Part shown: in pieces, positions 13,108-57,297 of the stretch | Position numbering within the stretch: the stretch's first letter is position 1 | Layout of the letters: each line of letters starts with the position of its first letter | From: Hormiphora californensis | Lineage: Eukaryota; Animalia; Ctenophora | DNA length: 64,000 nt | NCBI GenBank assembly: GCA_020137815.1 | Contig: CM035356.1 | Coordinates: 5,332,001-5,396,000, forward strand | Reading direction: 5' to 3' | Translations under genes and position numbers: made by a program | The notes under the pieces: generated by a model | The model's database searches: none | Told to the model about the DNA's origin: nothing | What the model saw: the letters and a program-made list of their open reading frames with translations, nothing else

Positions 13108-16100
13108 ATGGAGGAGTCAAAGAAGCCTCTATCTATGAAACTCTTCTCTACGTGGGAGGGAGAGAGAACCGCAGGACACTGCATCCCACGGTATGTGTAA
13201 TACACATTACTCATTGTGTATATCTCATGTTTTATAGAGTTTCCTTCCTACGGTTAGCATTGTAGCTCCATCGAGATTTACTATCCCCTAATATTTAAAA
13301 TAAAGTTCTTCTTTCTCTAACATTTGTAAATGTGATAATTTTCATCGCAATCTTATTCTCAGGACGTGTACTTTCAAACTACAACGTGTCAAACTAACAA
13401 AACAGTTGGAGGCTGACCTTGGTAACTTGGTCATCTGTGCATCAATTAGTAACGGGGTAAGTCAATTAGTAACTGGGTAAGTCAATTAGTAACGGGGTAA
13501 GTCAATTAGTAACGGGGTAAGTCAATTAGTAACGGGGTAAGTCAATTAGTAACTGGGTAAGTCAATTAGTAACGGGGTAAGTAAATTAGTAACGGGGTAA
13601 GTCAATTAGTAACTGGGTAAGTCTTTATTTGCTTTTCTATATTTTGAGGTCTCTGTATTTAGTCGAGATTGCTTGTTAATGCAGTGGGAATATCTTCTGT
13701 TAAATTGTTGGTATACCCCTAAAATCATTCTTGAACTTACTAACCCAGATTTTTTCCCCGCCCGGGTGAAACATAGCATTATGAAACATAATGCATTTAT
13801 TCTTGTTTTAGAATTTTAGACGCTCATTACGGACTGACGAGATATTTCTAGACGAAGAGAGCGGTGCCGATTTGGATTATTCTTTCTCCTTCCAGGTTAC
13901 CATAACAACCGAGTTTTTTACGGATTATTCTTTAAATTATGTGCAGTGTGCACTGGAGCGAAGAAAATGAAACTCCATTTCGCTCTCTTCCATCTCTCCG
14001 TCTCTTTCTCTCTCTCAATTTCCCTCCATTTCCCTCTATCTATCTCTTTCACCCCCTCACGCTCTACCCATTTTCTCCGCAGTATCCTCACTACCTAAAA
14101 CGGGAGGAGAACACCCTGAAACTAACTCTCCAACGACGGAAGCGGTATGGAAATAGAACCATGCCGGGATATAAGACAGTCGCCAGCGGTCAAATAGATC
14201 TTACCCAGGTATGGAATATATTTTGGGTTTTGGGTAGCTCATACCCGGGTAATGGGTATACCTTGTAGGATTTTATTATGCCTATAAGTTGTACCTGAAA
14301 ACTTATAACACGAGACCGAAGGTCGAGTGTTATAAGTACAACAATAATGATCCGAGACCATAGGTCGAGGCAGATTCTTGTACTTTATTGCACGAGCCTG
14401 CGAGTGCCACTAAGTCTAACTACCTCACGAGCCTGCGAGTGATGTAGTTTTACTTTTTGACCGAGCCTGCGAGGTCTAAAAGTGTAAGAATCTGGGACAT
14501 TATTGTTGACGTCAGGTACAACGAAAATAGGCATAATAAAATTGCATTGTAAAATTTTTTAAACAAGAGTGAGAGACACTTTAGGGCGTAACAATAGAAC
14601 AAATTCATGATAAGGTAGCAGGCAGAGATAAGATAACGCCTGAGATCTATAGGTAAAGAGAGTGAGAGATTAGCGAGAGTGAGAGAGAGATAAAGAATTT
14701 GTGGGTCTGGGAGTTCGTGACTGTTATCTTGATCTCGGTGTTGCAACGGCTTGAGAGTGTGACATAAAGAAAGAGAGAGAGGGAGGGTGTTCGTAAATGC
14801 TTATCTTTCTAACGGTTTTTAAGTGTGACAGTTTTCACTTATAACACCCCCCAGTGTTATAAGTTTTCACTTATAACACTGGGGGGTGTTACAAGTGAAA
14901 ACTTATAACACTGGGCAGTGTTATAAGTTGTACAAGCAGTGATACCTAAAGATTTACAGTATGTTCCAAAATTTTACAATGTTATGTTCTACCCTGCACG
15001 GCGAAATATGCCTCTAGAGGCCTGTTTCGCCGTGCAGGGCGCAGTGAAACAGGGCCGAGCAAGGCAAGGTATACCCAGGTGTGGTGTATACAATATTGTG
15101 GTAGCTATTAATTTTAATTGCTAACATTAATGGACCGTTAATTGGCTTGATGGATACTGTTTTGTACACACAGAATTATGACCTGTGTAAAAATATTAAA
15201 TGCATTTTGTTGTTCCCCGGAACAATAGAGAATTTCTGGAATGTTCTGGTATCTCAAAGTAACACTGTCGAGCACTTTCGCCAGCATCTCTTCACATATC
15301 AAGTTATCTAACATAACAATTTCTCTCTCAGATAATGCAATGCCCGATAGACGAGAAATTAAAGTTGTTTCACAAGGGCGGTGGATTTCAAGTCGCAATG
15401 CTCACCCTTCATCAAGTTTCAAGGTAGCTCGCTCCGAATTTAGTTGTCATTTTACTTCTTCTAAATCAAATCAAAACTAAACTTATTATTATTGATTATT
15501 AAATATCAATTATTAATTTCAGTTTACCCCATGAGAGTATTAGGAACCATCAGCGTCATAGTGGAGAGAATAGTTCTTCAGAGGATGATTACATCTTTCA
15601 CAGTGAGGTAATAATACATGGTGGTCCGTAAATTATGAGTAAGAGGGCGATCCGTAGTGAGGCATTTCAAGAACTTGAGGTGTGCAGTGAGAGAGAGAGA
15701 GAGAGAGACGGTCACAATGACGTATGATTTTACCACCCTTCTAGACAGTACCCCCCCCCCTCCCCCGTCAATGAACCACCCTTCTAGATAGCAACCATCC
15801 CCCCCCCCCCCATTTTATTTTCTAACCACCTCCCCAGGATGACCTGGACTCTGATGGAGAGGAGCAGCGAAATGGGGGTTCATCTAGTAAAAAGAAGAGC
15901 AAAATGTCTGTCAATAATAAAGATGGAAATAAATTAAAGAAGAAGAAATTCACCAGGTAACCACATTAAATTTAGATATAATATTTAATTTTAAATTTAA
16001 TTTAATTTTAAATTAAATTAAATTAAATATTTTGGAATTAAATGTTTTTAAGATCTTCCCTAGCTGCCGTCTCACTTTCTCTTTGACATAATCCTGATCA

Positions 16101-19100
16101 GATCTTATTAATGATAATTATCCATCATTTTTATTTAATTTACAGCCAGATTTACCGGCCCCAACCCTTCCCCTGAGCAGATATACATTTTTAGTTGACA
16201 TGCAGAGAGGGGGAATCCGGAATATCGTAAATCTGGAATTATCGTAATAAAACAATTTAAATCTCTCCTCAGATTTACAGCCCGGGACCTGTTAAGAAAG
16301 ATAAAACTAAATGACGAGAGTAGGGATGATGAGGAAGAGGAAGCAGAGATACCACAGGATCACAGATCAATTAGGTAATTAGTAGTCTAATTACTAACAG
16401 GATCACAGATCAATTAGGTAATTAGTAGTCTATTTACTAACAGGATCACCATAACCAGCTGGTTCTGATTCTACCCCCATTCAGCCTATACCCGGGTACA
16501 TGACCCCATCCCCCACAGCCGATACTGAGTATTCCCCATCCCCCACAGCCGATACTCGGGTACCTAACTCTGTCCCCCTACAGCCGATACTCGGGTACCT
16601 AACTCTGTCCCCCACAGCCGATACTCGGGTACCTAACTCTGTCCCCCACAGCCGATACTCGGGTACCTAACTCTGTCCCCCACAGCCGATACTCGGGTAC
16701 CTAACTCTGTCCCCCACAGCCGATACTCGGGTACCTAACTCTGTCCCCCTACAGCCGATACTCGGGTACCTAACTCTGTCCCCCACAGCCGATACTCGGG
16801 TACCTAACTCTGTCCCCCACAGCCGATACTCGGGTACCTAACTCTGTCCCCCACAGCCGATACTCGGGTACCTAACTCTGTCCCCCACAGCCGATACTCG
16901 GGTACCTAACTCTGTCCCCCACAGCCGATACTCGGGTACCTAACTCTGTCCCCCCACAGCCGATACTCGGGTACCTAACTCTGTCCCCCACAGCCGATAC
17001 TCGGGTACCTAACTCTGTCCCCCTACAGCCGATACTCGGGTACCTAACTCTGTCCCCCACAGCCGATACTCGGGTACCTAACTCTGTCCCCCCACAGCCG
17101 ATACTCGGGTACCTAACTCTGTCCCCCACAGCCGATACTCGGGTACCTAACTCTGTCCCCCACAGCCGATACTCGGGTACCTAACTCTGTCCCCCACAGC
17201 CGATACTCGGGTACCTAACTCTGTCCCCCACAGCCGATACTCGGGTACCTAACTCTGTCCCCCACAGCCGATACTCGGGTACCTAACTCTGTCCCCCACA
17301 GCCGATACTCGGGTACCTAACTCTGTCCCCCACAGCCGATACTCGGGTACCTAACTCTGTCCCCCACAGCCGATACTCGGGTACCTAACTCTGTCCCCCA
17401 CAGCCGATACTCGGGTACCTAACTCTGTCCCCCACAGCCGATACTCGGGTACCTAACTCTGTCCCCCACAGCCGATACTCGGGTACCTAACTCTGTCCCC
17501 CACAGCCGATACTCGGGTACCTAACTCTGTCCCCCACAGCCGATACTCGGGTACCTAACTCTGTCCCCCACAGCCGATACTCGGGTACCTAACTCTGTCC
17601 CCCACAGCCGATACTCGGGTACCTAACTCTGTCCCCCACAGCCGATACTCGGGTACCTAACTCTGTCCCCCACAGCCGATACTCGGGTACCTAACTCTGT
17701 CCCCCACAGCCGATACTCGGGTACCTAACTCTGTCCCCCACAGCCGATACTCGGGTACCTAACTCTGTCCCCCACAGCCGATACTCGGGTACCTAACTCT
17801 GTCCCCCACAGCCGATACTCGGGTACCTAACTCTGTCCCCCACAGCCGATACTCGGGTACCTAACTCTGTCCCCCACAGCCGATACTCGGGTACCTAACT
17901 CTGTCCCCCACAGCCGATACTCGGGTACCTAACTCTGTCCCCCACAGCCGATACTCGGGTACCTAACTCTGTCCCCCACAGCCGATACTCGGGTACCTAA
18001 CTCTGTCCCCCACAGCCGATACTCGGGTACCTAACTCTGTCCCCCACAGCCGATACTCGGGTACCTAACTCTGTCCCCCACAGCCGATACTCGGGTACCT
18101 AACTCTGTCCCCCACAGCCGATACTCGGGTACCTAACTCTGTCCCCCACAGCCGATACTCGGGTACCTAACTCTGTCCCCCACAGCCGATACTCGGGTAC
18201 CTAACTCTGTCCCCCACAGCCGATACTCGGGTACCTAACTCTGTCCCCCACAGCCGATACTCGGGTACCTAACTCTGTCCCCCACAGCCGATACTCGGGT
18301 ACCTAACTCTGTCCCCCACAGCCGATACTCGGGTACCTAACTCTGTCCCCCACAGCCGATACTCGGGTACCTAACTCTGTCCCCCACAGCCGATACTCGG
18401 GTACCTAACTCTGTCCCCCACAGCCGATACTCGGGTACCTAACTCTGTCCCCCACAGCCGATACTCGGGTACCTAACTCTGTCCCCCACAGCCGATACTC
18501 GGGTACCTAACTCTGTCCCCCACAGCCGATACTCGGGTACCTAACTCTGTCCCCCACAGCCGATACTCGGGTACCTAACTCTGTCCCCCACAGCCGATAC
18601 TCGGGTACCTAACTCTGTCCCCCACAGCCGATACTCGGGTACCTAACTCTGTCCCCCCACAGCCGATACTCGGGTACCTAACTCTGTCCCCCACAGCCGA
18701 TACTCGGGTACCTAACTCTGTCCCCCACAGCCGATACTCGGGTACCTAACTCTGTCCCCCACAGCCGATACTCGGGTACCTAACTCTGTCCCCCACAGCC
18801 GATACTCGGGTACCTAACTCTGTCCCCCACAGCCGATACTCGGGTACCTAACTCTGTCCCCCACAGCCGATACTCGGGTACCTAACTCTGTCCCCCACAG
18901 CCGATACTCGGGTACCTAACTCTGTCCCCCACAGCCGATACTCGGGTACCTAACTCTGTCCCCCACAGCCGATACTCGGGTACCTAACTCTGTCCCCCAC
19001 AGCCGATACTCGGGTACCTAACTCTGTCCCCCACAGCCGATACTCGGGTACCTAACTCTGTCCCCCACAGCCGATACTCGGGTACCTAACTCTGTCCCCC

Positions 19101-22100
19101 ACAGCCGATACTCGGGTACCTAACTCTGTCCCCCACAGCCGATACTCGGGTACCTAACTCTGTCCCCCACAGCCGATACTCGGGTACCTAACTCTGTCCC
19201 CCACAGCCGATACTCGGGTACCTAACTCTGTCCCCCACAGCCGATACTCGGGTACCTAACTCTGTCCCCCACAGCCGATACTCGGGTACCTAACTCTGTC
19301 CCCCACAGCCGATACTCGGGTACCTAACTCTGTCCCCCACAGCCGATACTCGGGTACCTAACTCTGTCCCCCACAGCCGATACTCGGGTACCTAACTCTG
19401 TCCCCCACAGCCGATACTCGGGTACCTAACTCTGTCCCCCACAGCCGATACTCGGGTACCTAACTCTGTCCCCCACAGCCGATACTCGGGTACCTAACTC
19501 TGTCCCCCACAGCCGATACTCGGGTACCTAACTCTGTCCCCCACAGCCGATACTCGGGTACCTAACTCTGTCCCCCACAGCCGATACTCGGGTACCTAAC
19601 TCTGTCCCCCACAGCCGATACTCGGGTACCTAACTCTGTCCCCCACAGCCGATACTCGGGTACCTAACTCTGTCCCCCCACAGCCGATACTCGGGTACCT
19701 AACTCTGTCCCCCACAGCCGATACTCGGGTACCTAACTCTGTCCCCCACAGCCGATACTCGGGTACCTAACTCTGTCCCCCACAGCCGATACTCGGGTAC
19801 CTAACTCTGTCCCCCACAGCCGATACTCGGGTACCTAACTCTGTCCCCCACAGCCGATACTCGGGTACCTAACTCTGTCCCCCACAGCCGATACTCGGGT
19901 ACCTAACTCTGTCCCCCACAGCCGATACTCGGGTACCTAACTCTGTCCCCCACAGCCGATACTCGGGTACCTAACTCTGTCCCCCACAGCCGATACTCGG
20001 GTACCTAACTCTGTCCCCCACAGCCGATACTCGGGTACCTAACTCTGTCCCCCACAGCCGATACTCGGGTACCTAACTCTGTCCCCCACAGCCGATACTC
20101 GGGTACCTAACTCTGTCCCCCACAGCCGATACTCGGGTACCTAACTCTGTCCCCCACAGCCGATACTCGGGTACCTAACTCTGTCCCCCACAGCCGATAC
20201 TCGGGTACCTAACTCTGTCCCCCACAGCCGATACTCGGGTACCTAACTCTGTCCCCCACAGCCGATACTCGGGTACCTAACTCTGTCCCCCACAGCCGAT
20301 ACTCGGGTACCTAACTCTGTCCCCCACAGCCGATACTCGGGTACCTAACTCTGTCCCCCACAGCCGATACTCGGGTACCTAACTCTGTCCCCCACAGCCG
20401 ATACTCGGGTACCTAACTCTGTCCCCCACAGCCGATACTCGGGTACCTAACTCTGTCCCCCACAGCCGATACTCGGGTACCTAACTCTGTCCCCCACAGC
20501 CGATACTCGGGTACCTAACTCTGTCCCCCACAGCCGATACTCGGGTACCTAACTCTGTCCCCCACAGCCGATACTCGGGTACCTAACTCTGTCCCCACAG
20601 CCGATACTCGGGTACCTAACTCTGTCCCCCACAGCCGATACTCGGGTACCTAACTCTGTCCCCCACAACCGATACTCGGGTACCTAACTCTGTCCCCCAC
20701 AGCCGATACTCGGGTACCTAACTCTGTCCCCCCACAGGCCGATCTCGGGTACCTAACTCTGTCCCCCACAGCCGATACTCGGTACCTAACTCTGTCCCCA
20801 CACCAGCCACTCGTACCTACTCTGTCCCCACAGCCGATACTCGGTACCACTCTGTCCCCCACAGCGATACTCGGGTACCTACTCTGTCCCCCACAGCCGA
20901 ACTCGGTACCACTCTGTCCCCCACAGCCGATTCGGGTACCTAATCTGTCCCCCACCGATACTCGGGTACTTACTCTGTCCCCTACAGCATACTCGGGTAC
21001 TATCTGTCCCCAAGCCGTACTCGGTCCTAACTCTCCCAACGATACTCGGTACCTACTCTGTCCCCCACCCGTATCGGGTACATCTGTCCCACAGCGTACT
21101 CGGGTACTAACTCTGTCCCCCACAGCTACTCGGTACTCTGTCGTAGGGGACTACTCTGTCCCCCACAGCGATCTCGGGTACCTAACTCTGTCCCCACAGC
21201 CGATACTCGGTACCTCTCTGTCCCCCACAGCCGATACTCGGGTACCTACTCTGCCCCCACAGCCGATACTCGGACCTAACTCTGTCCCCCACAGCCGTAC
21301 TCGGGCCTAACTCTGTCCCCCACAGCCGATACTCGGGTCCAACCTCCCCCCCCAACTCGGGACCTAACTCTGTCCCCACGCACTGTAACCTCTCCTCCCC
21401 ACCCATACTCGGTACCTAACTCTGTCCCCCCAGCCAACTCGGGTACCTAACTCTCCCCACAGCCATCGGGTACCTACTCTTCCCCCACAGCCATACTCGG
21501 TAACCAACTCCCCCCCACAGCCGATACTCGGGTACCTAACTCTGTCCCCCACAGCCGATACTCGGTACCTCTCCCCCATACCACGGGTACCTACTCTAAC
21601 CAACTCGGGCCAATCCCCCACAGCCGATACTCGGGACCTAACTCTGTCCCCCACCGATACTCGGTACCTAACTCTGTCCCCCACAGCCGAACTCGGGTAC
21701 CTACCTGTCCCCCACACCGATACTCGGTACCTAACCTGTCCCCCACGCCATACTCGGGTACCTACTCTGTCCCCCCAGCCGATACGGGTACCTACCTTCC
21801 CCCCGCCGATACTCGGGTACCTAACTCTGTCCCCACAGCATACTCGTACTAATTGTCCCCACAGCCGATACTCGGGTACCTAACTCTGCCCCACAGCCGA
21901 TACTCGGGGTACCACTCGTCCCCCACAGCCGATACTCGGTACCTAACTCTGTCCCCACAGCCGATACTCGGGTACCTAACTCTGTCCCCCACAGCACCGA
22001 TAACTCGGACAAACGGTTCAACCCCACAGCCGATATCGGTACTACTTGTCCCCCAGCCGATTGGTCCTATCTGTCCCCACAGCCATACTCGGGTACCTAA

Positions 22101-25100
22101 CTCTGTCCCCCACAGCCGATACTCGGGTACCTAACTCTGTCCCCCACAGCCGATACTCGGGTACCTAACTCTGTCCCCCACAGCCGATACTCGGGTACCT
22201 AACTCTGTCCCCCACAGCCGATACTCGGGTACCTAACTCTGTCCCCCACAGCCGATACTCGGGTACCTAACTCTGTCCCCCACAGCCGATACTCGGGTAC
22301 CTAACTCTGTCCCCCACAGCCGATACTCGGGTACCTAACTCTGTCCCCCACAGCCGATACTCGGGTACCTAACTCTGTCCCCCACAGCCGATACTCGGGT
22401 ACCTAACTCTGTCCCCCACAGCCGATACTCGGGTACCTAACTCTGTCCCCCACAGCCGATACTCGGGTACCTAACTCTGTCCCCCACAGCCGATACTCGG
22501 GTACCTAACTCTGTCCCCCACAGCCGATACTCGGGTACCTAACTCTGTCCCCCACAGCCGATACTCGGGTACCTAACTCTGTCCCCCACAGCCGATACTC
22601 GGGTACCTAACTCTGTCCCCCACAGCCGATACTCGGGTACCTAACTCTGTCCCCCACAGCCGATACTCGGGTACCTAACTCTGTCCCCCACAGCCGATAC
22701 TCGGGTACCTAACTCTGTCCCCCACAGCCGATACTCGGGTACCTAACTCTGTCCCCCACAGCCGATACTCGGGTACCTAACTCTGTCCCCCACAGCCGAT
22801 ACTCGGGTACCTAACTCTGTCCCCCACAGCCGATACTCGGGTACCTAACTCTGTCCCCCTACAGCCGATACTCGGGTACCTAACTCTGTCCCCCACAGCC
22901 GATACTCGGGTACCTAACTCTGTCCCCCACAGCCGATACTCGGGTACCTAACTCTGTCCCCCACAGCCGATACTCGGGTACCTAACTCTGTCCCCCACAG
23001 CCGATACTCGGGTACCTAACTCTGTCCCCCACAGCCGATACTCGGGTACCTAACTCTGTCCCCCACAGCCGATACTCGGGTACCTAACTCTGTCCCCCAC
23101 AGCCGATACTCGGGTACCTAACTCTGTCCCCCACAGCCGATACTCGGGTACCTAACTCTGTCCCCCACAGCCGATACTCGGGTACCTAACTCTGTCCCCC
23201 ACAGCCGATACTCGGGTACCTAACTCTGTCCCCCACAGCCGATACTCGGGTACCTAACTCTGTCCCCCACAGCCGATACTCGGGTACCTAACTCTGTCCC
23301 CCACAGCCGATACTCGGGTACCTAACTCTGTCCCCCACAGCCGATACTCGGGTACCTAACTCTGTCCCCCACAGCCGATACTCGGGTACCTAACTCTGTC
23401 CCCCACAGCCGATACTCGGGTACCTAACTCTGTCCCCCACAGCCGATACTCGGGTACCTAACTCTGTCCCCCACAGCCGATACTCGGGTACCTAACTCTG
23501 TCCCCCACAGCCGATACTCGGGTACCTAACTCTGTCCCCCACAGCCGATACTCGGGTACCTAACTCTGTCCCCCACAGCCGATACTCGGGTACCTAACTC
23601 TGTCCCCCACAGCCGATACTCGGGTACCTAACTCTGTCCCCCACAGCCGATACTCGGGTACCTAACTCTGTCCCCCACAGCCGATACTCGGGTACCTAAC
23701 TCTGTCCCCCACAGCCGATACTCGGGTACCTAACTCTGTCCCCCACAGCCGATACTCGGGTACCTAACTCTGTCCCCCACAGCCGATACTCGGGTACCTA
23801 ACTCTGTCCCCCACAGCCGATACTCGGGTACCTAACTCTGTCCCCCACAGCCGATACTCGGGTACCTAACTCTGTCCCCCACAGCCGATACTCGGGTACC
23901 TAACTCTGTCCCCCACAGCCGATACTCGGGTACCTAACTCTGTCCCCCACAGCCGATACTCGGGTACCTAACTCTGTCCCCCACAGCCGATACTCGGGTA
24001 CCTAACTCTGTCCCCCACAGCCGATACTCGGGTACCTAACTCTGTCCCCCACAGCCGATACTCGGGTACCTAACTCTGTCCCCCACAGCCGATACTCGGG
24101 TACCTAACTCTGTCCCCCACAGCCGATACTCGGGTACCTAACTCTGTCCCCCACAGCCGATACTCGGGTACCTAACTCTGTCCCCCACAGCCGATACTCG
24201 GGTACCTAACTCTGTCCCCCACAGCCGATACTCGGGTACCTAACTCTGTCCCCCACAGCCGATACTCGGGTACCTAACTCTGTCCCCCACAGCCGATACT
24301 CGGGTACCTAACTCTGTCCCCCACAGCCGATACTCGGGTACCTAACTCTGTCCCCCACAGCCGATACTCGGGTACCTAACTCTGTCCCCCACAGCCGATA
24401 CTCGGGTACCTAACTCTGTCCCCCACAGCCGATACTCGGGTACCTAACTCTGTCCCCCACAGCCGATACTCGGGTACCTAACTCTGTCCCCCACAGCCGA
24501 TACTCGGGTACCTAACTCTGTCCCCCACAGCCGATACTCGGGTACCTAACTCTGTCCCCCACAGCCGATACTCGGGTACCTAACTCTGTCCCCCACAGCC
24601 GATACTCGGGTACCTAACTCTGTCCCCCACAGCCGATACTCGGGTACCTAACTCTGTCCCCCACAGCCGATACTCGGGTACCTAACTCTGTCCCCCACAG
24701 CCGATACTCGGGTACCTAACTCTGTCCCCCACAGCCGATACTCGGGTACCTAACTCTGTCCCCCACAGCCGATACTCGGGTACCTAACTCTGTCCCCCAC
24801 AGCCGATACTCGGGTACCTAACTCTGTCCCCCACAGCCGATACTCGGGTACCTAACTCTGTCCCCCACAGCCGATACTCGGGTACCTAACTCTGTCCCCC
24901 ACAGCCGATACTCGGGTACCTAACTCTGTCCCCCACAGCCGATACTCGGGTACCTAACTCTGTCCCCCACAGCCGATACTCGGGTACCTAACTCTGTCCC
25001 CCACAGCCGATACTCGGGTACCTAACTCTGTCCCCCCACAGCCGATACTCGGGTACCTAACTCTGTCCCCCACAGCCGATACTCGGGTACCTAACTCTGT

Positions 25101-28100
25101 CCCCCACAGCCGATACTCGGGTACCTAACTCTGTCCCCCACAGCCGATACTCGGGCACCTAACTCTGTCCCCCACAGCCGATACTCGGGTACCTAACTCT
25201 GTCCCCCCACAGCCGATACTCGGGTACCTAACTCTGTCCCCCATAGCCGATACTCGGGTACCTAACTCTGTCCCCCTACAGCCGATACTCGGGTACCTAA
25301 CTCTGTCCCCCACAGCCGATACTCGGGTACCTAACTCTGTCCCCCACAGCCGATACTCGGGTACCTAACTCTGTCCCCCACAGCCGATACTCGGTACCTA
25401 ACTCTGTCCCCCACAGCCGATACTCGGGTACCTAACTCTGTCCCCCACAGCGATACTCGGGTACCTAACTCTGTCCCCACAGCCGATACTCGGGTACCTA
25501 ACTCTGTCCCCCACAGCCGATACTCGGGTACCTAACTCTGTCCCCCACAGCCGATACTCGGGTACCTAACTCTGTCCCCCACAGCCGATACTCGGGTACC
25601 TAACTCTGTCCCCCACAGCCGATACTCGGGTACCTAACTCTGTCCCCCACAGCCGATACTCGGGTACCTAACTCTGTCCCCCACAGCCGATACTCGGGTA
25701 CCTAACTCTGTCCCCCACAGCCGATACTCGGGTACCTAACTCTGTCCCCCACAGCCGATACTCGGGTACCTAACTCTGTCCCCCACAGCCGATACTCGGG
25801 GTACCTAACTCTGTCCCCCACAGCCGATACTCGGGTACCTAACTCTGTCCCCCACAGCCGATACTCGGGTACCTAACTCTGTCCCCCACAGCCGATACTC
25901 GGGTACCTAACTCTGTCCCCCACAGCCGATACTCGGGTACCTAACTCTGTCCCCCACAGCCGATACTCGGGTACCTAACTCTGTCCCCCACAGCCGATAC
26001 TCGGGTACCTAACTCTGTCCCCCACAGCCGATACTCGGGTACCTAACTCTGTCCCCCCACAGCCGATACTCGGGTACCTAACTCTGTCCCCCACAGCCGA
26101 TACTCGGGTACCTAACTCTGTCCCCCTACAGCCGATACTCGGGTACCTAACTCTGTCCCCCACAGCCGATACTCGGGTACCTAACTCTGTCCCCCACAGC
26201 CGATACTCGGGTACCTAACTCTGTCCCCCACAGCCGATACTCGGGTACCTAACTCTGTCCCCCACAGCCGATACTCGGGTACCTAACTCTGTCCCCCACA
26301 GCCGATACTCGGGTACCTAACTCTGTCCCCCACAGCCGATACTCGGGTACCTAACTCTGTCCCCCACAGCCGATACTCGGGTACCTAACTCTGTCCCCCA
26401 CAGCCGATACTCGGGTACCTAACTCTGTCCCCCACAGCCGATACTCGGGTACCTAACTCTGTCCCCCACAGCCGATACTCGGGTACCTAACTCTGTCCAC
26501 CTACAGCCGATACTCGGGTACCTAACTCTGTCCCCCACAGCCGATACTCGGGTACCTAACTCTGTCCCCCACAGCCGATACTCGGGTACCTAACTCTGTC
26601 CCCCACAGCCGATACTCGGGTACCTAACTCTGTCCCCCACAGCCGATACTCGGGTACCTAACTCTGTCCCCCACAGCCGATACTCGGGTACCTAACTCTG
26701 TCCCCCACAGCCGATACTCGGGTACCTAACTCTGTCCCCCACAGCCGATACTCGGGTACCTAACTCTGTCCCCCACAGCCGATACTCGGGTACCTAACTC
26801 TGTCCCCCCACAGCCGATACTCGGGTACCTAACTCTGTCCCCCACAGCCGATACTCGGGTACCTAACTCTGTCCCCCACAGCCGATACTCGGGTACCTAA
26901 CTCTGTCCCCCACAGCCGATACTCGGGTACCTAACTCTGTCCCCCACAGCCGATACTCGGGTACCTAACTCTGTCCCCCACAGCCGATACTCGGGTACCT
27001 AACTCTGTCCCCCACAGCCGATACTCGGGTACCTAACTCTGTCCCCCACAGCCGATACTCGGGTACCTAACTCTGTCCCCCACAGCCGATACTCGGGTAC
27101 CTAACTCTGTCCCCCACAGCCGATACTCGGGTACCTAACTCTGTCCCCCACAGCCGATACTCGGGTACCTAACTCTGTCCCCCACAGCCGATACTCGGGT
27201 ACCTAACTCTGTCCCCCACAGCCGATACTCGGGTACCTAACTCTGTCCCCCACAGCCGATACTCGGGTACCTAACTCTGTCCCCCACAGCCGATACTCGA
27301 GTACCTAACTCTGTCCCCCACAGCCGATACTCGGGTACCTAACTCTGTCCCCCACAGCCGATACTCGGGTACCTAACTCTGTCCCCCACAGCCGATACTC
27401 GGGTACCTAACTCTGTCCCCCACAGCCGATACTCGGGTACCTAACTCTGTCCCCCACAGCCGATACTCGGGTACCTAACTCTGTCCCCCTACACAGCCGA
27501 TACTCGGGTACCTAACTCTGTCCCCCACAGCCGATACTCGGGTACCTAACTCTGTCCCCCACAGCCGATACTTGGGTACCTAACTCTGTCCCCCACAGCC
27601 GATACTCGGGTACCTAACTCTGTCCCCTACAGCCGATACTCGGGTACCTAACTCTGTCCCCCACAGCCGATACTCGGGTACCTTCTCTTCTTTCAACGAG
27701 GATGGTCTGATGATGGGGAGCGAGGATGGAACTGATAGTGACAGTATTGGCACCCTGCCCAAACCTCACCTTGCCCCCTACTTTGAGAGCGAGAAGGGGA
27801 GCAGTACGGATGAGGCGATTATCCAAGTGAAAACGAGCGTTTCACAGTCAAGTACCCCGGTGATTGGGGAGCTGAGGCACAGTCCCCTGGCGCGACAATC
27901 ACCCACCAGTCAGGAGAGTGGAGGATCGTTCGAGGTAAGTCAGGAGAGTGGCGGATCATTCGAGGTGAGTCAAGACTCAAGAGAGTGGAGGATCATTCGA
28001 GGTGAGTGGATCATGGTGACCAATTTTTAAATAGTGTACAGGGTGTCCCATTGTCTTTGTGTGACCTGCGATTTTGGACTATGAATGGGCAGGTTATGCA

Positions 28101-31100
28101 AAGATGGTGGGACGCCCTGGACTTCGTTTGTGTCCAGTTTGGAGTGTGTGAAACATATGGAAAGTAGTGTGGTTGCGAAAATTATAAATTCCTGATGATT
28201 ATTCCTGATGACAATAAAGTTATATATTATATGACTTGATTATTACGGAAACTCACTGTGTCATGTGTAATTGTATTATAGGGATGATTTGTCTGTTGCG
28301 GTACTATCACTACTACGTGACTATACAGCGGTATCAATACACAATTCATGAAAATTGAGAGTGAGAGAGGGAGGGAGAGAGAGAGAGAGAGAGAGAGGGA
28401 GGGAGAGAGAGAGGCTATACTTGAAGAATAATACATAAAATATGCTTGGACAGCTGCAGCTACAGTCAGTAATCAAGGATGATCCTAATTTCTCGTTCAT
28501 CATTAAAATTACTTTCTACATGTCCTAAACACTGTTATTACACTGTCCCCCCTCACCGTTCAGGGAGTGTGTTTAGAACCCCGGCCCCTCCTCCTAACTG
28601 TCCCCCTCACCAACAACATCACCCCACAGGGAGAGTGTTTACCGGATTGCAAGAATCTAAGTGAGCGGCTGGAGGAGATGTTTTCCAAGGATTCTATGGT
28701 CCAAGTACCAAACAGTATCACACTCGCTCACGCCAAGGAGAAATCTGTTCAACATGTGGGTGAAATTACTGTATTTTTGATAAGTTATTTGTTTGGTTAC
28801 CTATTTACCTCGACCAAAACGCGGAGTTTTTACGTCAGCCGACCCGAAACCGGATTAAATTTGGGCACCCGCTGGTCTAAGGGTCTCCAAATACGTCAAA
28901 ATATGTTTAAATTATCATTTGGGATCATGCAGACCTTTTAATTACATGTAATTACCCTTTAATTACATGAAATTACATTTTAATTACATGTAATTACTTC
29001 CAATTACATTCCAATTACTTCAGCACCTCGAGAGCTTTCGAACGCACCCTAGAACACCTTTATACTCCTTCTAATTGCCGAGTTCTGTATACCCCTTATT
29101 TTGACTGTTTTTCGCGTCCTACCCCTTATAGGTTTGGGCACACCCATCGCCACACCCCCTATACGTCGCGGGACCTCGAGACCTTTCCAACGAGCCATAG
29201 AACACATCTCTACTACTTCAGGGGGCTTCAAAACTTTCACTCTAAAAATATCTATGGTTTTATGGTTTATGGTTATGGTTATGGTTATGGTTTTTTTTTC
29301 ATCTGGTATTAAGGGCCTGTCGGCTCGGCCCCGTTGTTTTAGTTTTAGGGGGGATGTTTTAGGGGGGGTGGGTTGAGTTTGGGTTATATTCGGGTCGGGG
29401 GGCCTTGCCAGGCCCCGAAACATTTGGTTTGTTTTTACATACCCCGAATTCTTTTCTTTTTTTTTCGACGTCAGCGCGGCTAACCCCGGTTTGTTTTTAC
29501 ATGTATGTAAATGTATACCCCGAATTCTTTTGGGCCAATCTTATTTTAGTCTTCTCCATCAATCTTATCTCATTACTAAAGGGAGATCTGTTTGGTTTCA
29601 ATCTGCCACTTAACACCTGAAAGTGTATCAAATGTTGTAGCTATATCATGTTACAACTAACTGCACTCTGTTACAACTCTGTATATCATCTACAGTACTA
29701 GCTGATCTAACATTACATATATGTAATGTCAACTAGTCTAACATAGTAAACATGTGGGAACAATGTTATATGTATCAGCTAATAACGTAGCAAACATTTA
29801 ACATTTAGACTCTAAAGTCTAAAAAACTAACATGTTTCAGTCGGTAATACGGTCGTTACGTAACCACGGTAGCTGCCTATTCCTGAAAAACACTGCTGAT
29901 GCTAAACTCTTCATCACTACCCTTGTAAACAAGATGCAGAAATGGTAAGCTTACCAATTTTGACGTAATAATTATAATATTATAGACTAAAAAATTTTAT
30001 TACCAAACCTCGATTTACTTCCCCAGCTTCATTGTATCACTTCACTACCAACTGTACCAATCCACTCCCACTTTCTAGTGTAACATTTTAATGCTTCTTC
30101 TAGTGTAACCACACTTCACTTGTACTCCCACATTATAACGTTTAAATAGTGTAACGCGTCCTATACTAAATATGCCCCCCAGTGTAAAACTTCAATCCCC
30201 TCCCAGTGTAACAACTAAACCCTTATGCCCCCCCCCCAGTGTAACGCGACATTCGAGAATGAGTCCAGTGACTCTGAAAGTAGTGGGAGACTTCTCATCC
30301 TGTTCCCTGATACTCCGGCCCCTCATGGACAGTCTGAATAATAAGAGTGCGGATTGGGTGAATAGTATTCAGTTCATATTCATACCTACAGGTTAGAGAA
30401 TTACCTTCCAAATGTGGGCATTCTGCATTGTACATAATATATTCATTTATTGTACCCCAATGTGGGCATTGTACAAACATTAATTTTACCCCCCCCCCCC
30501 CCCCACCAGCTACCTTTATGTTACAGATGACCTACACTCCGCCTCTCTTTTTTTGTTTTTTTGGATCATCCTCGTGCCTATTTATGTCGCAGATGCTGAT
30601 TATAACCCCCTTTTTCTGTTACAGATGCTGATTATAACCCCCTTTTTCTGTTACAGATGCTGATTATAACCCCCTTTTCTGTTACAGATGCTGATTATAA
30701 CCCCCTTTTCTGTTGCAGATGCTGATTATAACCCCCTTTTCTGTTACAGATGCTGATTATAACCCCCTTTTCTGTTACAGATGCTGATTATAACCCCCTT
30801 TTCTGTTACAGATGCTGATTATAACCCCCTTTTCTGTTACAGATGCTGATTATAACACCCTTTTCTGTTACAGATGCTGATAACCCTATTGGGAGGTACG
30901 TATCGACACTAGACGACACCTACACGCGGCTCCTGGAAAGTCTCTCAGGGGATACCGTGGATCTGATATCGAGCTATGAGCGAGATGCAAAGGATTCAAC
31001 TCGACTTTACGTAGGGAGGGTGTTACTTCAGCAAGTAACAGACCAGTAAGTTATAAATTGTAATCAAGGCGAAAACAACATGTTTTTGGAACTATTTCTC

Positions 31101-34100
31101 ATATTTTCTACTTTGATGCCTGAACATTATGCAGGCATATCACTGCACTGGCAAGCGCAAAGGTTGCCATCCCCCTCCCTCCCCCCAAAAAGCGCCGCCA
31201 GAAACGCAGGGATACGTTTATGGGTGTTCGACCGGACTCCAGTCTCCAGAAGGCTATAGCGCGACTCTCTTTCTAATCCGTTAGACTTGAAATTTGAAGA
31301 GATTTAGAGAGGGAAAGAGACATTGTGATATCTAGGTTAAATTGGTTGAATTTTGGTTAAATTTGGTTGAATTTGGTAGAGGTTGGACATGGTAATATGC
31401 CAGATAGCCACGACAACCGGAATTGTGGGCATCCTAGACAGTTACCGACACTCTCAGGCTGTGGACCACAAGTGGAGGCCGGTCGGATGTGAAAATGAGG
31501 TCGGGCGTGAAAATGAGGTCGGGTGCGGTGTGAAAATGAGGTCGGGTGTGAAAATGAGGTCGGGTGTGAAAATGAGGTCGAGTGTGAAAATGAGGTCGGG
31601 TGTGAAAATGAGGTCGGCTGTGAAAATGAGGTCGGGTGTGAAAATGAGGTCGGGTGTGAAAATGAGGTCGGGTGTGAAAATGAGGTCGGGTGTGAAAATG
31701 AGGTCTGGTGTGAAAATGAGGTCGGGTGTGAAAATGAGGTCGGGTTTGAAAATGAGGTCGGGTGTGAAAATGAGGTCGGGTGTGAAAATGAGGTCGGGTG
31801 TGAAAATGAGGTCGGGTGTGAAAATGAGGTCGGGTGTGAAAATGAGGTCGGGTGTGAAAATGAGGTCGGGTGTGAAAATGAGGTCGGGTGTGAAAATGAG
31901 GTCGGGTGTGAAAATGAGGTCGGGTGTGAAAATGAGGTCGGGTGTGAAAATGAGGTCGGGTGTGAAAATGAGGTCGGGTGTGAAAATGAGGTCGGGTGTG
32001 AAAATGAGGTCGGGTGTGAAAATGAGGTCGGGTGTGAAAATGAGGTCGGGTGTGAAAATGAGGTCGGGTGTGAAAATGAGGTCGGGTGTGAAAATGAGGT
32101 CGGGTGTGAAAATGAGGTCGGGTGTGAAAATGAGGTCGGGTGTGAAAATGAGGTCGGGTGTGAAAATGAGGTCGGGTGTGAAAATGAGGTCGGGTGTGAA
32201 AATGAGGTCGGGTGTGAAAATGAGGTCGGGTGTGAAAATGAGGTCGGGTGTGAAAATGAGGTCGGGTGTGAAAATGAGGTCGGGTGTGAAAATGAGGTCG
32301 GGTGTGAAAATGAGGTCGGGTGTGAAAATGAGGACGGGTGTGAAAATGAGGACGGGTGTGAAAATGAGGACGGGTGTGAAAATGAGGACGGGTGTGAAAA
32401 TGAGGACGGGTGTGAAAATGAGGTCGGGTGTGAAAATGAGGACGGGTGTGAAAATGAGGTCGGGTGTGAAAATGAGGTCGGGTGTGAAAATGAGGTCGGG
32501 TGTGAAAATGAGGTCGGGTGTGAAAATGAGGTCGGGTGTGAAAATGAGGTACGGGTGTGAAAATGAGGTACGGGTGTGAAAATGAGGTCGGGTGTGAAAA
32601 TGAGGTCGGGTGTGAAAATGAGGTCGGGTGTGAAAATGAGGTCGGGTGTGAAAATGAGGTCGGGTGTGAAAATGAGGTCGGGTGAAATGAGGACGGGTGT
32701 GAAAATGAGGTCGGGTGTGAAAATGAGGTCGGGTGTGAAAATGAGGTCGGGTGTGAAAATGAGGTCGGGTGTGAAAATGAGGTCGGGTGTGAAAATGAGG
32801 TCGGGTGTGAAAATGAGGTCGGGTGTGAAAATGAGGTCGGGTGTGAAAATGAGGTCGGGTGTGAAAATGAGGTCGGGTGTGAAAATGAGGTCGGGTGTGA
32901 AAATGAGGTCGGGTGTGAAAATGAGGTCGGGTGTGAAAATGAGGTCGGGTGTGAAAATGAGGTCGGGTGTGAAAATGAGGTCGGGTGTGAAAATGAGGTC
33001 GGGTGTGAAAATGAGGTCGGGTGTGAAAATGAGGTCGGGTGTGAAAATGAGGTCAGGGTGTGAAAATGAGGTCGGGTGTGAAAATGAGGTCGGGTGTGAA
33101 AATGAGGTCGGGTGTGAAAATGAGGTCGGGTGTGAAAATGAGGTCGGGTGTGAAAATGAGGTCGGGTGTGAAAATGAGGTCGGGTGTGAAAATGAGGTCG
33201 GGTGTGAAAATGAGGTCGGGTGTGAAAATGAGGTCGGGTGTGAAAATGAGGTCGGGGAACTCAAGTGTCAGCCACATGAGAGCCTTGCAATAAATGGCAC
33301 GGGCGGATCGATGAATGTATATGCAGTGTATTTTTCCTGAACATTCCAAACACACTTACCAATTTCATTGCATTGTGGTACATCACTGGACCACGACCCA
33401 TCTCCCTGACAAGTTAGTGTTGCACTTCCCATAAGGATAAGGGCGGCAGCACATTCGATGGTGGCAGTTGTCCCTGCTGGTGAAGCAGTCCAGTTTCCTT
33501 GTGTTGACCCCTCAACAGTAAAGGCGGGACACGGTGATTCTAAATGGAAAAAGACACTTATAAGTTTATTGCAGGGGATGTAATATGGAGAGCTTTTGTA
33601 TACAGTACACACTACACATTTTAGTTCACTATGACTGAACCATTCCATGTACTAAAAGCCCCGGTGGTGGTATGCTCTGCGTGTGTGTAGTACATAGAGT
33701 TGTGTACTGTGTACTGCATGTACTGCATGTACTGTGTACTGTGTATGTGTTAGGATAACCAAAATTTAAATCATGTGATCCAACCCCCATAGTGTGCACT
33801 GTGTAATACTAAAGTGGTAAAGATTAAATTTAGATCCTTACCTGCTCTGTAGAAGTCAGATGCTGTGTCTGGTTGGGAACCAGTACTGTATAACAATATC
33901 TGCTCCACAACATCACCACCCCACCACGGAGCACATTCGCTACGTGAACTATTAGCGAATCCGATGTTCAGCACTTTAACATTGTTACATGTGATGGTAA
34001 AGGCAGTCTCTGTTTTGGTAATCGTCCAGATCTTATCCACCTCCACCGGGGGTTGTACTGGCAGGTCTTGCCAGTTTTCGGTGCAGTAGCCTATCGCATA

Positions 34101-37100
34101 CTGCATTGGGGAGGAAAACTTTATACCCACCCTACTGATCAAGCTACTGTCCTTTTTGTACATCTGCACATTGATCTCCTCACTACTGCCCAGTGTTGAG
34201 TCCGTCTTTATCTGGAGAGGCGTTTCCTCCAGATCCCAGAGTATAATCACATCCCGCTCTACAGCTGTCCAGTCTGAAAGTGCAATAAAGTAAATCACTA
34301 ATCTTGCTTTATATCAGACGAAAACGTAACTAACTCCTGGGACCCCATCATATTCCCACTTTGAAGGTTGGTGAAGCCGGATGAAATCAATGGTTATATT
34401 TCATAAAATGTTTAATATGTGACCAACCTGTGAGAACAACAACTGTTCCACACAATGCAGCTGTGAAGAGAAGGAAACGTATCATATCACTAAATAACTG
34501 AATAAGTATTTTAGTAAACTGTTACAGAGCAATTTACGGAAAGAATGGCACGACCGACACTAACAAATTTGGCGGGGAAACGATTTAGAAAAGGGAAAGA
34601 AAGAGATGGTAAAATGATAAAAGCGGGAGGCCAATGGTGACTAAGTTTTTAAAGGCTTCAAACACAAACAGAAGCTCAAGAAGTACAGTTTATCTGAACC
34701 CAAGCTCTCCCTTTCAGTATAAAAATAGGAGACAGGAAAGCTGTATCTTGAAATTCTTCGTAGCGTTTCGAAGGGGAGAGATACATGCCAAATAGAGCTG
34801 AGATCACTATTCTGTAACTGCCTCCCAGCTCTGAGGTACTGGGCAGTTAGACTGACACACAGGTTCTAATAAGATCTGGGAGATGACCTCACACTTTTTA
34901 TTTAACTCCCCCGTACGTGTCTCGTTACCTTGGAATTGCAACTTTAAAGATAGTTTTAGATCTCTGATCTGTTTAAGAGCAAGTAAAGCAATTAGCACAG
35001 CACGTGGATAGTTGTTGGAAACTCAACAAGTGGGAAATACGTCATCGATCAATGAGGAAGAGCTTGATCTGCTAATTGGTTTATCTAACACATTACCTCC
35101 ACGGAAAAGACATAGAGTGAGACAGAGAGAAAAAAAGATAAAAACAGATCCCTCGATTTCCGATCGGTGCGATCGCCACAGTTTTAATAGTAATCATAAT
35201 ATATGCCTACTATACATACATTCTACTACACCCCATGCCTGAAGAAAGTTCAACCTCGGATGAAAACTATGTACTAGGAAACTTTTAGGTGAATTGTTTT
35301 GTCTACACATGCAAAACTATACAAAACCATCCCACGTACTGCAGTAATTCTTCCGCCAACTACTAGTGTTATATTAAGGGTACGCTAACCAAAAATTTTT
35401 TTCGAGTGCAGGGAAATCTCTCACCGTAGGGTTGTAGGCCATGCCAAGGAGACCTCAAATATGCAATTTTAGTCCTTAAGTCGAATTCATATTTTTGCTA
35501 TAGCTGTTTAAAAAATGTCCTGTAAATACGTTTTTGGCATCTCAAAAAAATTTTTTTAAAGATAGGAGCATGAAAATTCGGGGATTTGAAGAGGACATGA
35601 AGGTAAATAACCACAAAATTTTTTTTTGCAATCCGAGCTGATTTCCGGTCCTGAGATGGATTTCTTTTTTTCCACTTTAACGCCCTATTTGGCAAAGTTC
35701 CGAAAACATGTGAAAGCTGTAAATTGGTGAAAAGTTGCGTCTAACGATTATCTAAGTGGCCATAAATTTTGGGCGTGTCCTTATTTGAGATAAGCTGTAC
35801 AGAGTTTTTTTTGTGAAAGCCGTCATTTCAGAAATAAATAAATTCCCTGTATCTCAAAAACGGCTGATCGTAGAGACCTGAGACTATGCTTAAACGATTC
35901 AGAAGGTCCGATTTTGGGGGGGTCTTCTGAGAGACATTTTGCTCCTACTTCAACCGTTTTTGCTGTAATTGCGAAAAACAAAAACCCATCTTCGCCATCG
36001 TGGATTTTTTGTGATTTTGTTTTTGGTGATTATACAGGGTGTGAACTGCATGTCGTGTTTGCTAGTCGCGAGCGCGCTTGCGAGACAAGCAAACACGTCA
36101 AGGTTCATTAACAAGCATGCTGCTCAGTCATTTTAGATTTAATACACAATGTAAGGATACCATGTAATAGGTGAGACTCTTGCCGTCACCCTCGTTCAAG
36201 TCCCGTGAAAAACGGAGCAGTACACGCAAACTGATGCCCATTTTCCTCGCGTGACCCCGATTCAGCAGTTTGAGACACCAACTCTTTAGGGGGCCATATC
36301 TCAGGAACCAGACAAGATAGGAAAAATCGCCGTCTAATGAGGCGTACAGTTTTTAATCTAGTTTACCACTGTACCGGCCGTTTCACTCTCCGACCTAAAA
36401 CAAAAATCGCAACCCCACAAAACTTCAAAATAATGAAATTCGCATCTCGCATGTCGTGTTGCATGTCGTGTTGCATGTCGTGTCATGTTATTGACGCGCT
36501 CGCGTTCAACTCTCACACAGCAGCTGCAGAACATGGCGGGAAACATCGAGGAGTAGAGAGAGGGTCGGTGCCGAATCAAATATTTCTTGATCTTGATCTA
36601 CTCCATCTCTCAGCTATCCTACCCCTCATCAACTCGATCTCTCAGCTACCCTACCCCTCATCTACTCAATTTTTCAGCTACCCTACCCCTCATCTACTCC
36701 ATCTTTCAGCTACCCTACCCCTTATCTAGTCTATCTCTCAGCTACCCTACTCCTCATCTACTCCATCTCTCAGCTACCCTACCTCCCATTTACTCCATCT
36801 CTCAGCTTCCCTATTAGGGAAGCATAGAGATTGAAACGATTAGGGGTAGGGAATCCCTATCCATAATCGTTTCCATCTCTATGCTTCCCTAGCCCTCATC
36901 AACTCCATCTTTCAGCTACCCTACCCCTAATCTAGTCCATCTCTCCGCTACCCTACTCCTCATCTACTCCATCTCTCAGCTACCCTACCTCCCATTTACT
37001 CCATCTCTCAGCTACCCTACCTCCCATTTACTCCATCTCTCAGCTTTCCTACCTCCCATTTACTCCATCTCTCAGCTTACCTACCTGCCATTTACTCCAT

Positions 37101-51286: not shown

Positions 51287-55141
<3,855 letters not shown>

Positions 55142-55406
55142 AGCCCACTATTATTACAAAGTATTTAACGGTTATTGTTATGGTTGTTGTAGCGACCAGG
55201 GCGGGGATCTTATTTGGGGTAAATTGTACCGAGGTATAAATGGTATATCCCGGGACCCTCCGAGTGATCCCAGTTATATTCTAGTTCTAATAACGGGATA
55301 TAGTGTGTGGATTTAAAATATGTTATTTGTCAAGCACACAAATCTTCAACCTGTTCCTGAAGATAAATACTAGTATCGAATTTCAAACAAATCAACATAC
55401 ACAACT

Positions 55407-56592
55407 TCAATCAAATTCTTTAAGCATTTTAGAGTCCAAATGGCTGTTTAGCATACGAATATTCCGTCTCCTCTTTGCTGGTTTCTTCTTAGTTGCTTTC
55501 TTTTTAGAGTTGAACCCCTCCATTGTTGATATCCCAACCCTCTTCAGATAATTCTCAATGTCCACCTCAGTGATCTCCCTGACGCTGACAGAGTTCCATA
55601 GCTCCTGAAACTGGGGCTCCATAGGGGTCTCAATACTGGTATCTCGGTAGAACAACACTGACTGTTTATCTGATCTTGTCACAGCTTTCAACTGTGGGGG
55701 AGTGAGGTGTTACTAATCGAGGGAGGAGGTACGGGTACTACTTGCTATTATATGTTCTAACCCTCCCTTTGTAAAGGGCGCCCGAAACACAGTCTAGCCA
55801 GGCAAGGTACTACTTGGTTCCTTCTAAAATAGTTTTCAATGATTATCATAAAAATTATTAGAGCAGGGAGGAGCTAGGAGGAGATGTAGTCCACTAACTG
55901 ACAGGCTTGCACACACAACTAGTACACGACAGTAGACAACTGAGACATGTCAAACAACCATGAACACACTCTCACAGTCAATACAAACAGACATCTGTTC
56001 AGTAATGATAATAGAGATCTTTCAGTTAAATAATTAATTAACTAAATAATTAATTAATATTCTAAACAGTTAAATAGGAACAATTACTTACCAAACCTTC
56101 TGATTTCAATTCCTCAAGAACTTCCTCATGTTTCATGATACATTCCTTAACATCTGCTTCTAGTATCCCACCCATCCCAGTCTCATAATGATCTCTGAGT
56201 ATCGTTAATAAATCCACCTTATTGTGGATAGGATATGCAGGTTTAAATGCAAACTTGTCCTTCTCTCTGTCATACTCCACCTTTATATTTTCTTTAAGCG
56301 CATTGGCTAACCAACTTTTCTCATGAGGGTCAAGATCCAACCGAACAGCCTTGATAAGATCTTCAACTGATATTGGTTTTCGTTCTTTCTGATAACGTTT
56401 CTTCAGCTTATCAACAGATAACTTCAGCCACTTGAAAGTGTTAGGGTTCTGAGACACTGCCTTGAGATCAGGTTTGAACCGCTTCTTGGACGGTTCTGAA
56501 GATCGTGGTTTGGAGGAAGAGGAGGGAGTTGAATTAGCAGCCGCTGCTTGTCGTTTGAAGGCTGCATGCTGCTGTAACAGATTGGAATTCAT
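55407..56592 (-). CDS. GTF2E2: General transcription factor IIE subunit beta, 2 exons
   Basis: Exons 56092-56592 and 55407-55691. FAFKPAYPI...GMGGILEADV and FQELWNSVSV...IENYLKRVGISTM...NSHL match TFIIE-beta. Confidence 0.93.
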
Positions 56593-57297
56593 ATCTAGAA
56601 GCATAACATTCATCAATATTTTACCAAATTGACAAACAAATAATAGGCCGAGCTGTCTTGAAGGTGAGTACAGTTAAAAAGGGCCACGCAATATAAACCA
56701 ACTTAGAAAAATCAAAAAATCTGACATCAATTCTAAATGCCAATTAAAAGACTTGATTGAAAAGATATAAATCAGTAAAATCATACACACACACACACTT
56801 AGTACGGCAGAACCTCCATACCGGCGCCAAGGAATGCTCCGGCATGCTCCGCTGTCACAGAATTAATCAGTCCCATAATGTCAGATACACTCTCCTCGAC
56901 AGTAAGAGTTCCCTGGGGACCACCCATGTCGGTCTTCACCCATCCAGGATGCAGACAGAAACACAGGACACCCTGATTTACCAGCTCCAGACCGTGACAT
57001 CGAGTGAGCATGTTAACAGCAGATTTGCTAACACGATACCCAAAAGCGTACCCAGCGTTCTGGCTGTTGACACCTGCAATACTTCCTAAATTGGATGAAA
57101 CGTTGACAATCCCTGCCCGGGAACAGGATACCGGGAGGTCAGAGCGGTGATCAGCAGCCTTTATCAAGAGAGACCGAAATCCTTCAGTGACAGTCTGAAC
57201 TCCAACAACATTTGTCTCCAAGACCTGTCTTAAGGTATCGTTTGTTGCTACGAAAACAGAACCTGCTTTGGGATAACTCATCACGCCAGCATTGTTA

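Follow-up and report, generated by a model that had tools for sequence, protein, structure and literature searches.

Minisatellites in which each unit spans an exon-intron junction have been called mirages, a term traced to the amphioxus Adh3 locus and to the founding paper of Canestro et al. 2002 (PMC3087553). The amphioxus examples lie in Adh3, in the globin genes BflGb6 and BflGb9, and in the troponin C and PGBD5 genes (PMC3087553 and PMC3902484, with the last two genes coming from PMC3902484). These reports describe duplication of either 5' or 3' exon boundaries with splicing left undisturbed (PMC3087553, PMC3902484), and for the globin mirages an escape of the array edges from homogenization (PMC3087553). 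A related repeat on the donor side is the 37-bp variable-number tandem repeat (VNTR) in intervening sequence 7 (IVS7) of human F7, whose first element spans the exon-intron boundary. Its report describes five to nine identical functional donors, of which only the most upstream one, attached to the exon, is used, and concludes from mutagenesis that the choice of donor follows 5'-to-3' scanning (PMC1557585). Here we analyze a 64,000-nt stretch of the Hormiphora californensis genome (GCA_020137815.1, CM035356.1, positions 5,332,001 to 5,396,000, forward strand), referred to below as the window, in whose coordinates all positions are given. One intron in this window, within a gene that resembles the gene for phosphofurin acidic cluster sorting protein (PACS), consists almost entirely of a 34-nt repeat, and this array is a very large acceptor-side mirage minisatellite.

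The likeness to the amphioxus mirages, as far as these are described in the sources above, extends to a boundary-spanning unit, an authentic copy attached to the exon, normal splicing, and edges that are less homogenized than the rest. The difference is one of scale: few units, 10 to 160 bp long, are reported for the amphioxus arrays, with 3 and 6 in BflGb6, whereas the PACS array holds approximately 334 that together occupy 99% of an 11.3-kb intron. As in the F7 repeat, identical pseudo splice sites are silent and the site attached to the exon is used, but the F7 elements are donors in five to nine copies, whereas the PACS units are acceptors in approximately 334 copies, of which the most downstream one is used. 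On the description given for F7, the PACS array is the acceptor-side counterpart of the human IVS7 VNTR (PMC1557585). A literature search for larger or acceptor-side arrays, made in a limited full-text collection, gave only the amphioxus mirages and the F7 VNTR. The type of repeat is already known and named, and it is the copy number that is unusual.

A 34-nt array at the acceptor of a PACS intron

A first-pass annotation of this DNA had assigned the host gene to PACS, and two Pfam matches above the cut-offs of their families agree with the assignment. C2_PACS_N (PF25332) matches the exon at 14083-14208 on the plus strand (E = 2e-16; 60.7 bits, cut-off 27), and Pacs-1 (PF10254) matches an open reading frame (ORF) at 30139-30393 that holds the exon at 30240-30391 (E = 4.2e-6; 26.5 bits, cut-off 25). 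Judged by these domains, the gene is a PACS homolog. The Pacs-1 match spans only profile positions 74 to 118 of 413, and the rest of the domain was not found among 61 plus-strand ORFs between 30.8 and 52.7 kb. No Pfam family matched the exon on either side of the array, and none of 57 candidate homologs scored for the downstream exon (27667-27934), so that these searches gave no backing to the motif in it that the first-pass annotation had called conserved. Metagenome contigs contained no instance of the acceptor-plus-exon-start pattern, and a protein-guided search of such contigs for the downstream exon gave 398 pattern matches, none of which was confirmed.

The array is a single tract of period 34 at positions 16482 to 27683 on the plus strand (332.6 copies, 95% matches, 3% indels, and a score of 20236 in Tandem Repeats Finder [TRF]), as had been claimed for it. 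Segmentation by cyclic edit distance resolved it into 334 units followed by a stub of 20 nt, where the real exon begins. The consensus CAGCCGATACTCGGGTACCTAACTCTGTCCCCCA accounts for 261 of the 334 units, and 258 identical 34-mers are obtained when the array is split at the unit start. With up to three mismatches allowed, 287 unit matches were found in the window, all of them on the plus strand within the array and none outside it, compared with a chance expectation of 0 (100 shuffles).

Each unit is made of 18 nt of intron end (up to CAG) and the first 16 nt of the exon; read from its CAG, it continues with these 16 nt and then with AACTCTGTCCCCCA, and the CTAAC motif straddles the join of the exon-derived and intron-derived parts. 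This make-up agrees with the earlier description of the units as copies of an acceptor (branch-like CTAAC, pyrimidine tract, and CAG) together with the first 16 nt of the exon. The first 16 to 17 nt of the downstream exon are common to every unit, and the array runs in register into that exon. The annotation went slightly too far in crediting every unit with CTAAC, CAG, and GGGTACC. Most units do have them, with 315 of the 334 starting with CAG, 305 containing CTAAC, 300 containing GGGTACC, and 286 combining all three, but the rest are defective.

The two units at the upstream edge of the array (16482-16545, plus strand) differ from the consensus at 7 and 9 places and are truly diverged, and single variants occur in four of the last six units. 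The divergence of these edge units agrees with the report that globin mirages escape homogenization at their edges (PMC3087553).

Two other views of the repeat were rejected. Origin of the unit from a dispersed satellite or transposon does not agree with a unit that holds the exon's own first 16 nt, in the register of the exon, and that occurs nowhere else in the window. The array is also not coding sequence, since 34 cannot be divided by 3 and a TAA is reached within 102 nt in every frame, except where variant units shift the frame.

The intron that contains the array measures 11,292 nt (16375-27666, plus strand; bounds from an RNA contig that joins 16374 to 27667), and the array contributes 11,185 nt, or 99%, of this length. 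It begins with 75 nt of a 43-nt donor-side repeat, followed by 32 unique bases and then by the 34-nt units. Other introns of the gene measure 99, 187, 230, 295, and 316 nt, and some come to a few hundred nucleotides after subtraction of repeats and two transposons; the neighboring introns range from 99 to 480 nt, with the shortest at 15424-15522. When both repeats of the large intron are collapsed, approximately 70 to 125 nt remain. This length is comparable with that of the neighboring introns, which suggests that an ancestral intron of only approximately 70 to 125 nt was inflated approximately 100-fold.

Splicing to the last copy

The locus was compared with assembled contigs from DNA of one organism, represented by two samples from two studies (X1 and X3), and from three marine (meta)transcriptomes (X13 and X20 among them). 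The contigs were placed on two flanks of the array, 27599-30589 (including 2.5 array units) and 13300-16614 (including 3.9 units). Nothing from a further run, X19, was placed on the flank at 27599-30589.

A 249-nt contig of the marine metatranscriptome X13 (depth 3.01) covers both 16337-16374 and 27665-27876. Over 16337-16374, it shows 0 differences from the window and continues for 210 overhanging letters that begin CCGATACTCTGGTACCTTCTCCTCCTTCAA. Before 27665, it carries 37 overhanging letters, the 30-letter consensus of which, GCAGAGATACCACAGGATCACAGATCAATT, is identical to window positions 16344-16373 in the upstream exon. The start of the overhang, CCGATACTCTGGTACCTTCTCC, is of the last-copy type and enters the unique part of the exon (TTCTC...) rather than another unit (TAACTC...). 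The mRNA junction in the RNA seen is 16374|27667, at the last copy and without an 11-nt insert. The last copy is a real acceptor, as had been predicted, and the alternative raised with that prediction, namely, that exon 9 uses a different acceptor, disagrees with this contig. Thus, the locus combines tandem repetition, a junction-spanning unit with the real boundary in its terminal copy, and regular splicing of the mRNA, as is the case for mirages, a repeat type that the first-pass annotation had not recognized.

The same contig sets the boundaries of the flanking exons. The upstream exon (exon 8 in the numbering of the first-pass annotation) lies at 16273-16374 on the plus strand, ends with ATCAATTAG, and is followed by the donor GTAATT at 16375; its reading frame continues from the exon at 15838-15956. 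The downstream exon (exon 9 in that numbering; 27667-27934, plus strand) is 268 nt long, and its 3' end is given by a joint in X20 (27934|28630) with GT..AG ends. The acceptor at 27666|27667 stands as it was first placed, but the exon limits had to be corrected, the upstream exon ending at 16374 (with GT at 16375-16376) and the downstream exon covering 27667-27934. The acceptor signals of the last unit (27648-27666, plus strand) comprise CTAAC at 27648-27652, a pyrimidine tract, and CAG at 27664-27666; going by this motif, the branch point is likely the A at 27651.

Splicing to any internal copy would bring the end of exon 8 together with CCGATACTCGGGTACCTAACTC. As had been pointed out before, it reads AGC CGA TAC TCG GGT ACC TAA, six codons and then a stop. 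Among the contigs on the two flanks, no junction to a decoy was observed, and their sole RNA loose end at an acceptor is that of the last copy.

Each unit also contains a donor-like site, GG|GTACCT, and it had been suggested that the intron could be excised piecewise through these sites, either as 11-nt micro-exons separated by 23-nt introns or by internal splices that shorten it step by step. The abundance of GGGTACC is in line with this suggestion, as is the finding that real donors in the gene can be as weak as CAG|GTTACC (13895|13896, supported by RNA). However, the GT of a 23-nt intron would lie only 7 nt before the branch A, which is sterically implausible, and the shortest intron here is 99 nt; at 23 nt, the putative introns are not long enough to be spliced in the way that an array of micro-exons needs. 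Use of a unit donor together with the unit acceptors beside the exons would furthermore leave 11 extra nucleotides that break the frame, and no such insert is present in the RNA contig.

Recursive splice sites, or ratchet points, of long Drosophila and vertebrate introns resemble the PACS units in being internal acceptor-like sites within a long intron. In ratchet points, the acceptor is directly followed by GT (AG|GT) so that a donor is regenerated, whereas the units read CAG|CCGATA and a decoy junction would be AG|CC. Since this junction regenerates no donor, traceless recursion from the 5' side cannot work. Neither the micro-exons nor the stepwise re-splicing of the first-pass annotation could thus be upheld, and we regard piecewise removal of the intron as very unlikely. 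Nothing shows internal unit-to-unit splices that span at least 57 nt.

Copy number and assembly of the array

Most of the defective units are clustered in a central zone (approximately 20600-22330, plus strand) of 56 degraded units with a mean length of 30.7 nt. Relative to the consensus, these 56 units have 211 deletions, 34 substitutions, and 26 insertions, versus 11 deletions, 15 substitutions, and 22 insertions in the remaining 278. The zone is deletion-heavy and unpatterned and looks like unpolished long-read error rather than biological divergence or a set of old units. It sits farthest from the unique anchors on either side, and the exact number of units and the length of the array are accordingly only approximate.

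A zone of this kind is also what would be expected if the array itself were an assembly artifact, in which a true locus with few units was inflated or misjoined by the long-read assembler, because a stretch that flank-anchored reads could not polish would look like the central 56 units. Such an artifact is hard to reconcile with the near-perfect state of the 278 units outside the zone and with the depth of the unit in the DNA data. In X1, the word depth is 73,486 over 27599-27698, compared with 136 to 276 in nearby single-copy pieces; over 16519-16614, it is 55,497 in X1 and 159,394 in X3, compared with 99 to 371 in the flanks. In both samples, which come from two studies, the depth of the unit exceeds that of the flanks by a factor of hundreds. 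This rules out an array of only a few copies, an outcome that the first-pass annotation had itself put forward as a challenge to its claim. It leaves assembly artifact as a highly improbable explanation.

The unit depth is approximately 3-fold higher in X3 than in X1 at a similar flank depth, although depth summed over contigs in this way is not a copy number. This difference bears on the possibility that the array is regulatory. Decoys could capture a share of the transcripts that depends on the length of the array and send them to a stop and nonsense-mediated mRNA decay (NMD), such that allele length would tune the output of PACS; otherwise, 11 kb of intron could delay transcription or splicing. 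Length polymorphism would account for the 3-fold difference, which may, however, be an artifact of the summing. The build of the decoys would suit such a role, since each intact one leads to a stop after six codons and reproduces the authentic site from the branch region to position +16 of the exon. The RNA contigs contain no decoy junction, however, and the amphioxus mirages are reported not to disturb splicing (PMC3087553, PMC3902484). In addition, four smaller arrays of like build are present in the same gene (see below), which points to a general mutational by-product rather than to a device specific to PACS. Taken with the absence of decoy junctions from these contigs, this makes a regulatory role improbable.

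Origin of the array and choice of the acceptor

We consider it probable that a 34-nt piece comprising the intron end and the first 16 nt of the exon was copied approximately 334 times, likely by ordinary minisatellite slippage or unequal exchange, and that the product is merely tolerated. Between the branch region and position +16 of the exon, the decoys do not differ from the authentic site, and the choice among them must therefore depend on what comes after. Exon definition is the likely reason for the choice: the last acceptor alone is followed by an exon of full length (268 nt) and its strong donor (GAG|GTAAGT), and each decoy would offer just 16 nt of exon before another acceptor follows. 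Any transcripts spliced to a decoy would meet a stop after six codons, with NMD as their likely fate, and the array would then impose at most a mild cost. Masking of the decoys by RNA structure is unlikely because four units do not fold more stably than shuffled sequences (z = +0.80; 163 of 200 shuffles were equally stable or more so). The copy attached to the exon is also the one used at the sister arrays for which RNA contigs give a junction (13456|13812, 16374, and 27934|28630).

With approximately 334 identical acceptors and an mRNA, as seen here, that uses the one farthest from the donor, the locus is an extreme natural test of 3' splice-site choice. Scanning from 5' to 3', as reported for F7, predicts use of the first acceptor copy, yet the last one is used in the RNA seen. 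Use of the farthest acceptor argues more broadly against any simple 5'-to-3' or first-come choice and for recognition by way of the exon that follows. The locus also indicates that junction duplication can inflate a short intron approximately 100-fold without destroying a housekeeping trafficking gene, and such arrays can lead gene finders to call decoy acceptors.

Several points weigh against a tolerated array spliced only at its end. The RNA evidence for the junction is one contig of depth 3 from one study; 8 of its 212 exon letters do not match the window (96% identity), and it therefore comes from another haplotype or population, in which the array may have a different length. Assembled contigs hide minor isoforms because rare variants are dropped, and NMD would hide more, such that low or moderate use of decoys is still compatible with these data. 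Given the central error-like zone, the true array may be longer or shorter than the assembled one; depth summed over contigs does not give a copy number, and the unit may also be present at a second locus. The donors of the PACS gene are varied (GTTACC, GTGGGT, and GTTAGA), and the GTACCT of each unit could therefore serve as a weak donor for acceptors at a distance of 57 nt or more. Lastly, the part played by exon definition is something that we infer.

Sister repeats in the PACS gene

Four further tandem repeats with a junction-spanning unit were found in the PACS gene, all on the plus strand. Three of them are on the donor side. At 13442-13623, a 20-nt unit in 9.1 copies (TRF) consists of the last 14 nt of the exon at 13363-13456 plus GTAAGT, giving nine tandem donors; the first is the one used, as indicated by an X20 joint at 13456|13812 and by two more contigs with an overhang from the next exon. 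At 16354-16449, a 43-nt unit in 2.2 copies (TRF, 98% matches) holds the last 21 nt of the exon, GTAATT, and 16 intron bases, and the first donor copy, 16374|16375, is used in the X13 contig. At 27908-28007, a 30-nt unit in 3.1 copies (TRF) combines the exon end with GTAAGT or GTGAGT, and here also the first donor is used (27934|28630, X20 RNA contig). The latter two repeats are located at the 3' ends of exons 8 and 9, the neighbors of the large array.

The fourth repeat, at 30590-30881 (31 nt in 9.4 copies by TRF), is on the acceptor side, with a unit made of a pyrimidine tract, CAG, and the exon start ATGCTGAT. It precedes the authentic PACS exon at 30874-31046, and the frame of the Pacs-1 exon at 30240-30391 continues from the last copy only, whereas its decoys would add 12 protein letters and then a stop. 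The contigs examined gave no clean RNA joint at this repeat.

Junction-spanning arrays amount to 5 of the 8 non-transposon arrays in the mapped part of the gene, compared with an expected share of 0.10 to 0.20 under a simple collapsed-gene model. The probability of at least 5 of 8 is 0.0004 to 0.011, depending on the assumptions, and as a post hoc figure for one gene it is a hint only. Rather than being random minisatellites that were tolerated, these mirages might have been seeded by a process that targets junctions, such as DNA lesions that arise at exon edges in the course of transcription or splicing, with the 334-copy array as its runaway end state; we hold this to be unlikely. The other large arrays in the window (31481-33256, 43271-45537, and 36599-40228) are not junction-spanning.

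Two elements within PACS introns, 14264-14980 and 28807-29418, have word depths of 10^5 to 10^6 in the DNA runs. They are bridged by DNA contigs that join 14263 to 14980 (X1), 14250 to 14985 (X3), and 28806 to 29419 (X1), and they look like abundant transposons with insertion polymorphism. Contigs of the RNA run X20 also match both elements. In a separate 168-nt RNA contig from X13, placed over 28729-30391, the end of exon 12 is followed by 16 letters that at first resemble exon 13 and then depart from it; after these, the contig passes from the end of exon 10 into exon 11. A chimera, a back-splice, or a diverged haplotype could account for this order.

Other repeats and genes in the window

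Other arrays in the window carry splice-like motifs. At 46582-47373 (plus strand), the unit of a 35-nt array in 22.8 copies contains TCTAAT, a pyrimidine tract, and TTGCAG. The array abuts a candidate exon at 47375-47481 that closes with CAG|GTAGTT and may be another acceptor-side mirage, in a putative gene. A neighboring gene on the minus strand has a 79-nt repeat in 2.7 copies at 928-1144, which appears, from the ORF and the position of the GT, to join an exon end, GTGTCCTCAATCAATACTGCAG, to the donor GTATGA.

The array at 43271-45537 (plus strand; 74 nt, 30.6 copies, 99% matches) holds an acceptor-like CTCTAAC...CCCCAG and, 22 nt later, a donor-like CAG|GTTGAG; an attached exon was found at neither end of it. 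An 18-nt array in 98.4 copies (31481-33256) lies approximately 115 nt into the intron that follows a minus-strand Sushi exon at 33268-33651 (Sushi, E = 4e-7). A large inverted duplication extends over approximately 35400 to 43100, as seen from the paired ORFs 36274-36729 (plus) and 41777-42232 (minus) and 35498-35740 (minus) and 42847-43089 (plus), and it encloses two opposite-facing 32-nt arrays, at 36599-38197 and 38203-40228. Farther along, minus-strand neighbors at 52866-58866 encode a PP2A-like Metallophos phosphatase (52866-54595), TFIIE beta (56062-56673), and a short-chain dehydrogenase (56799-58866).

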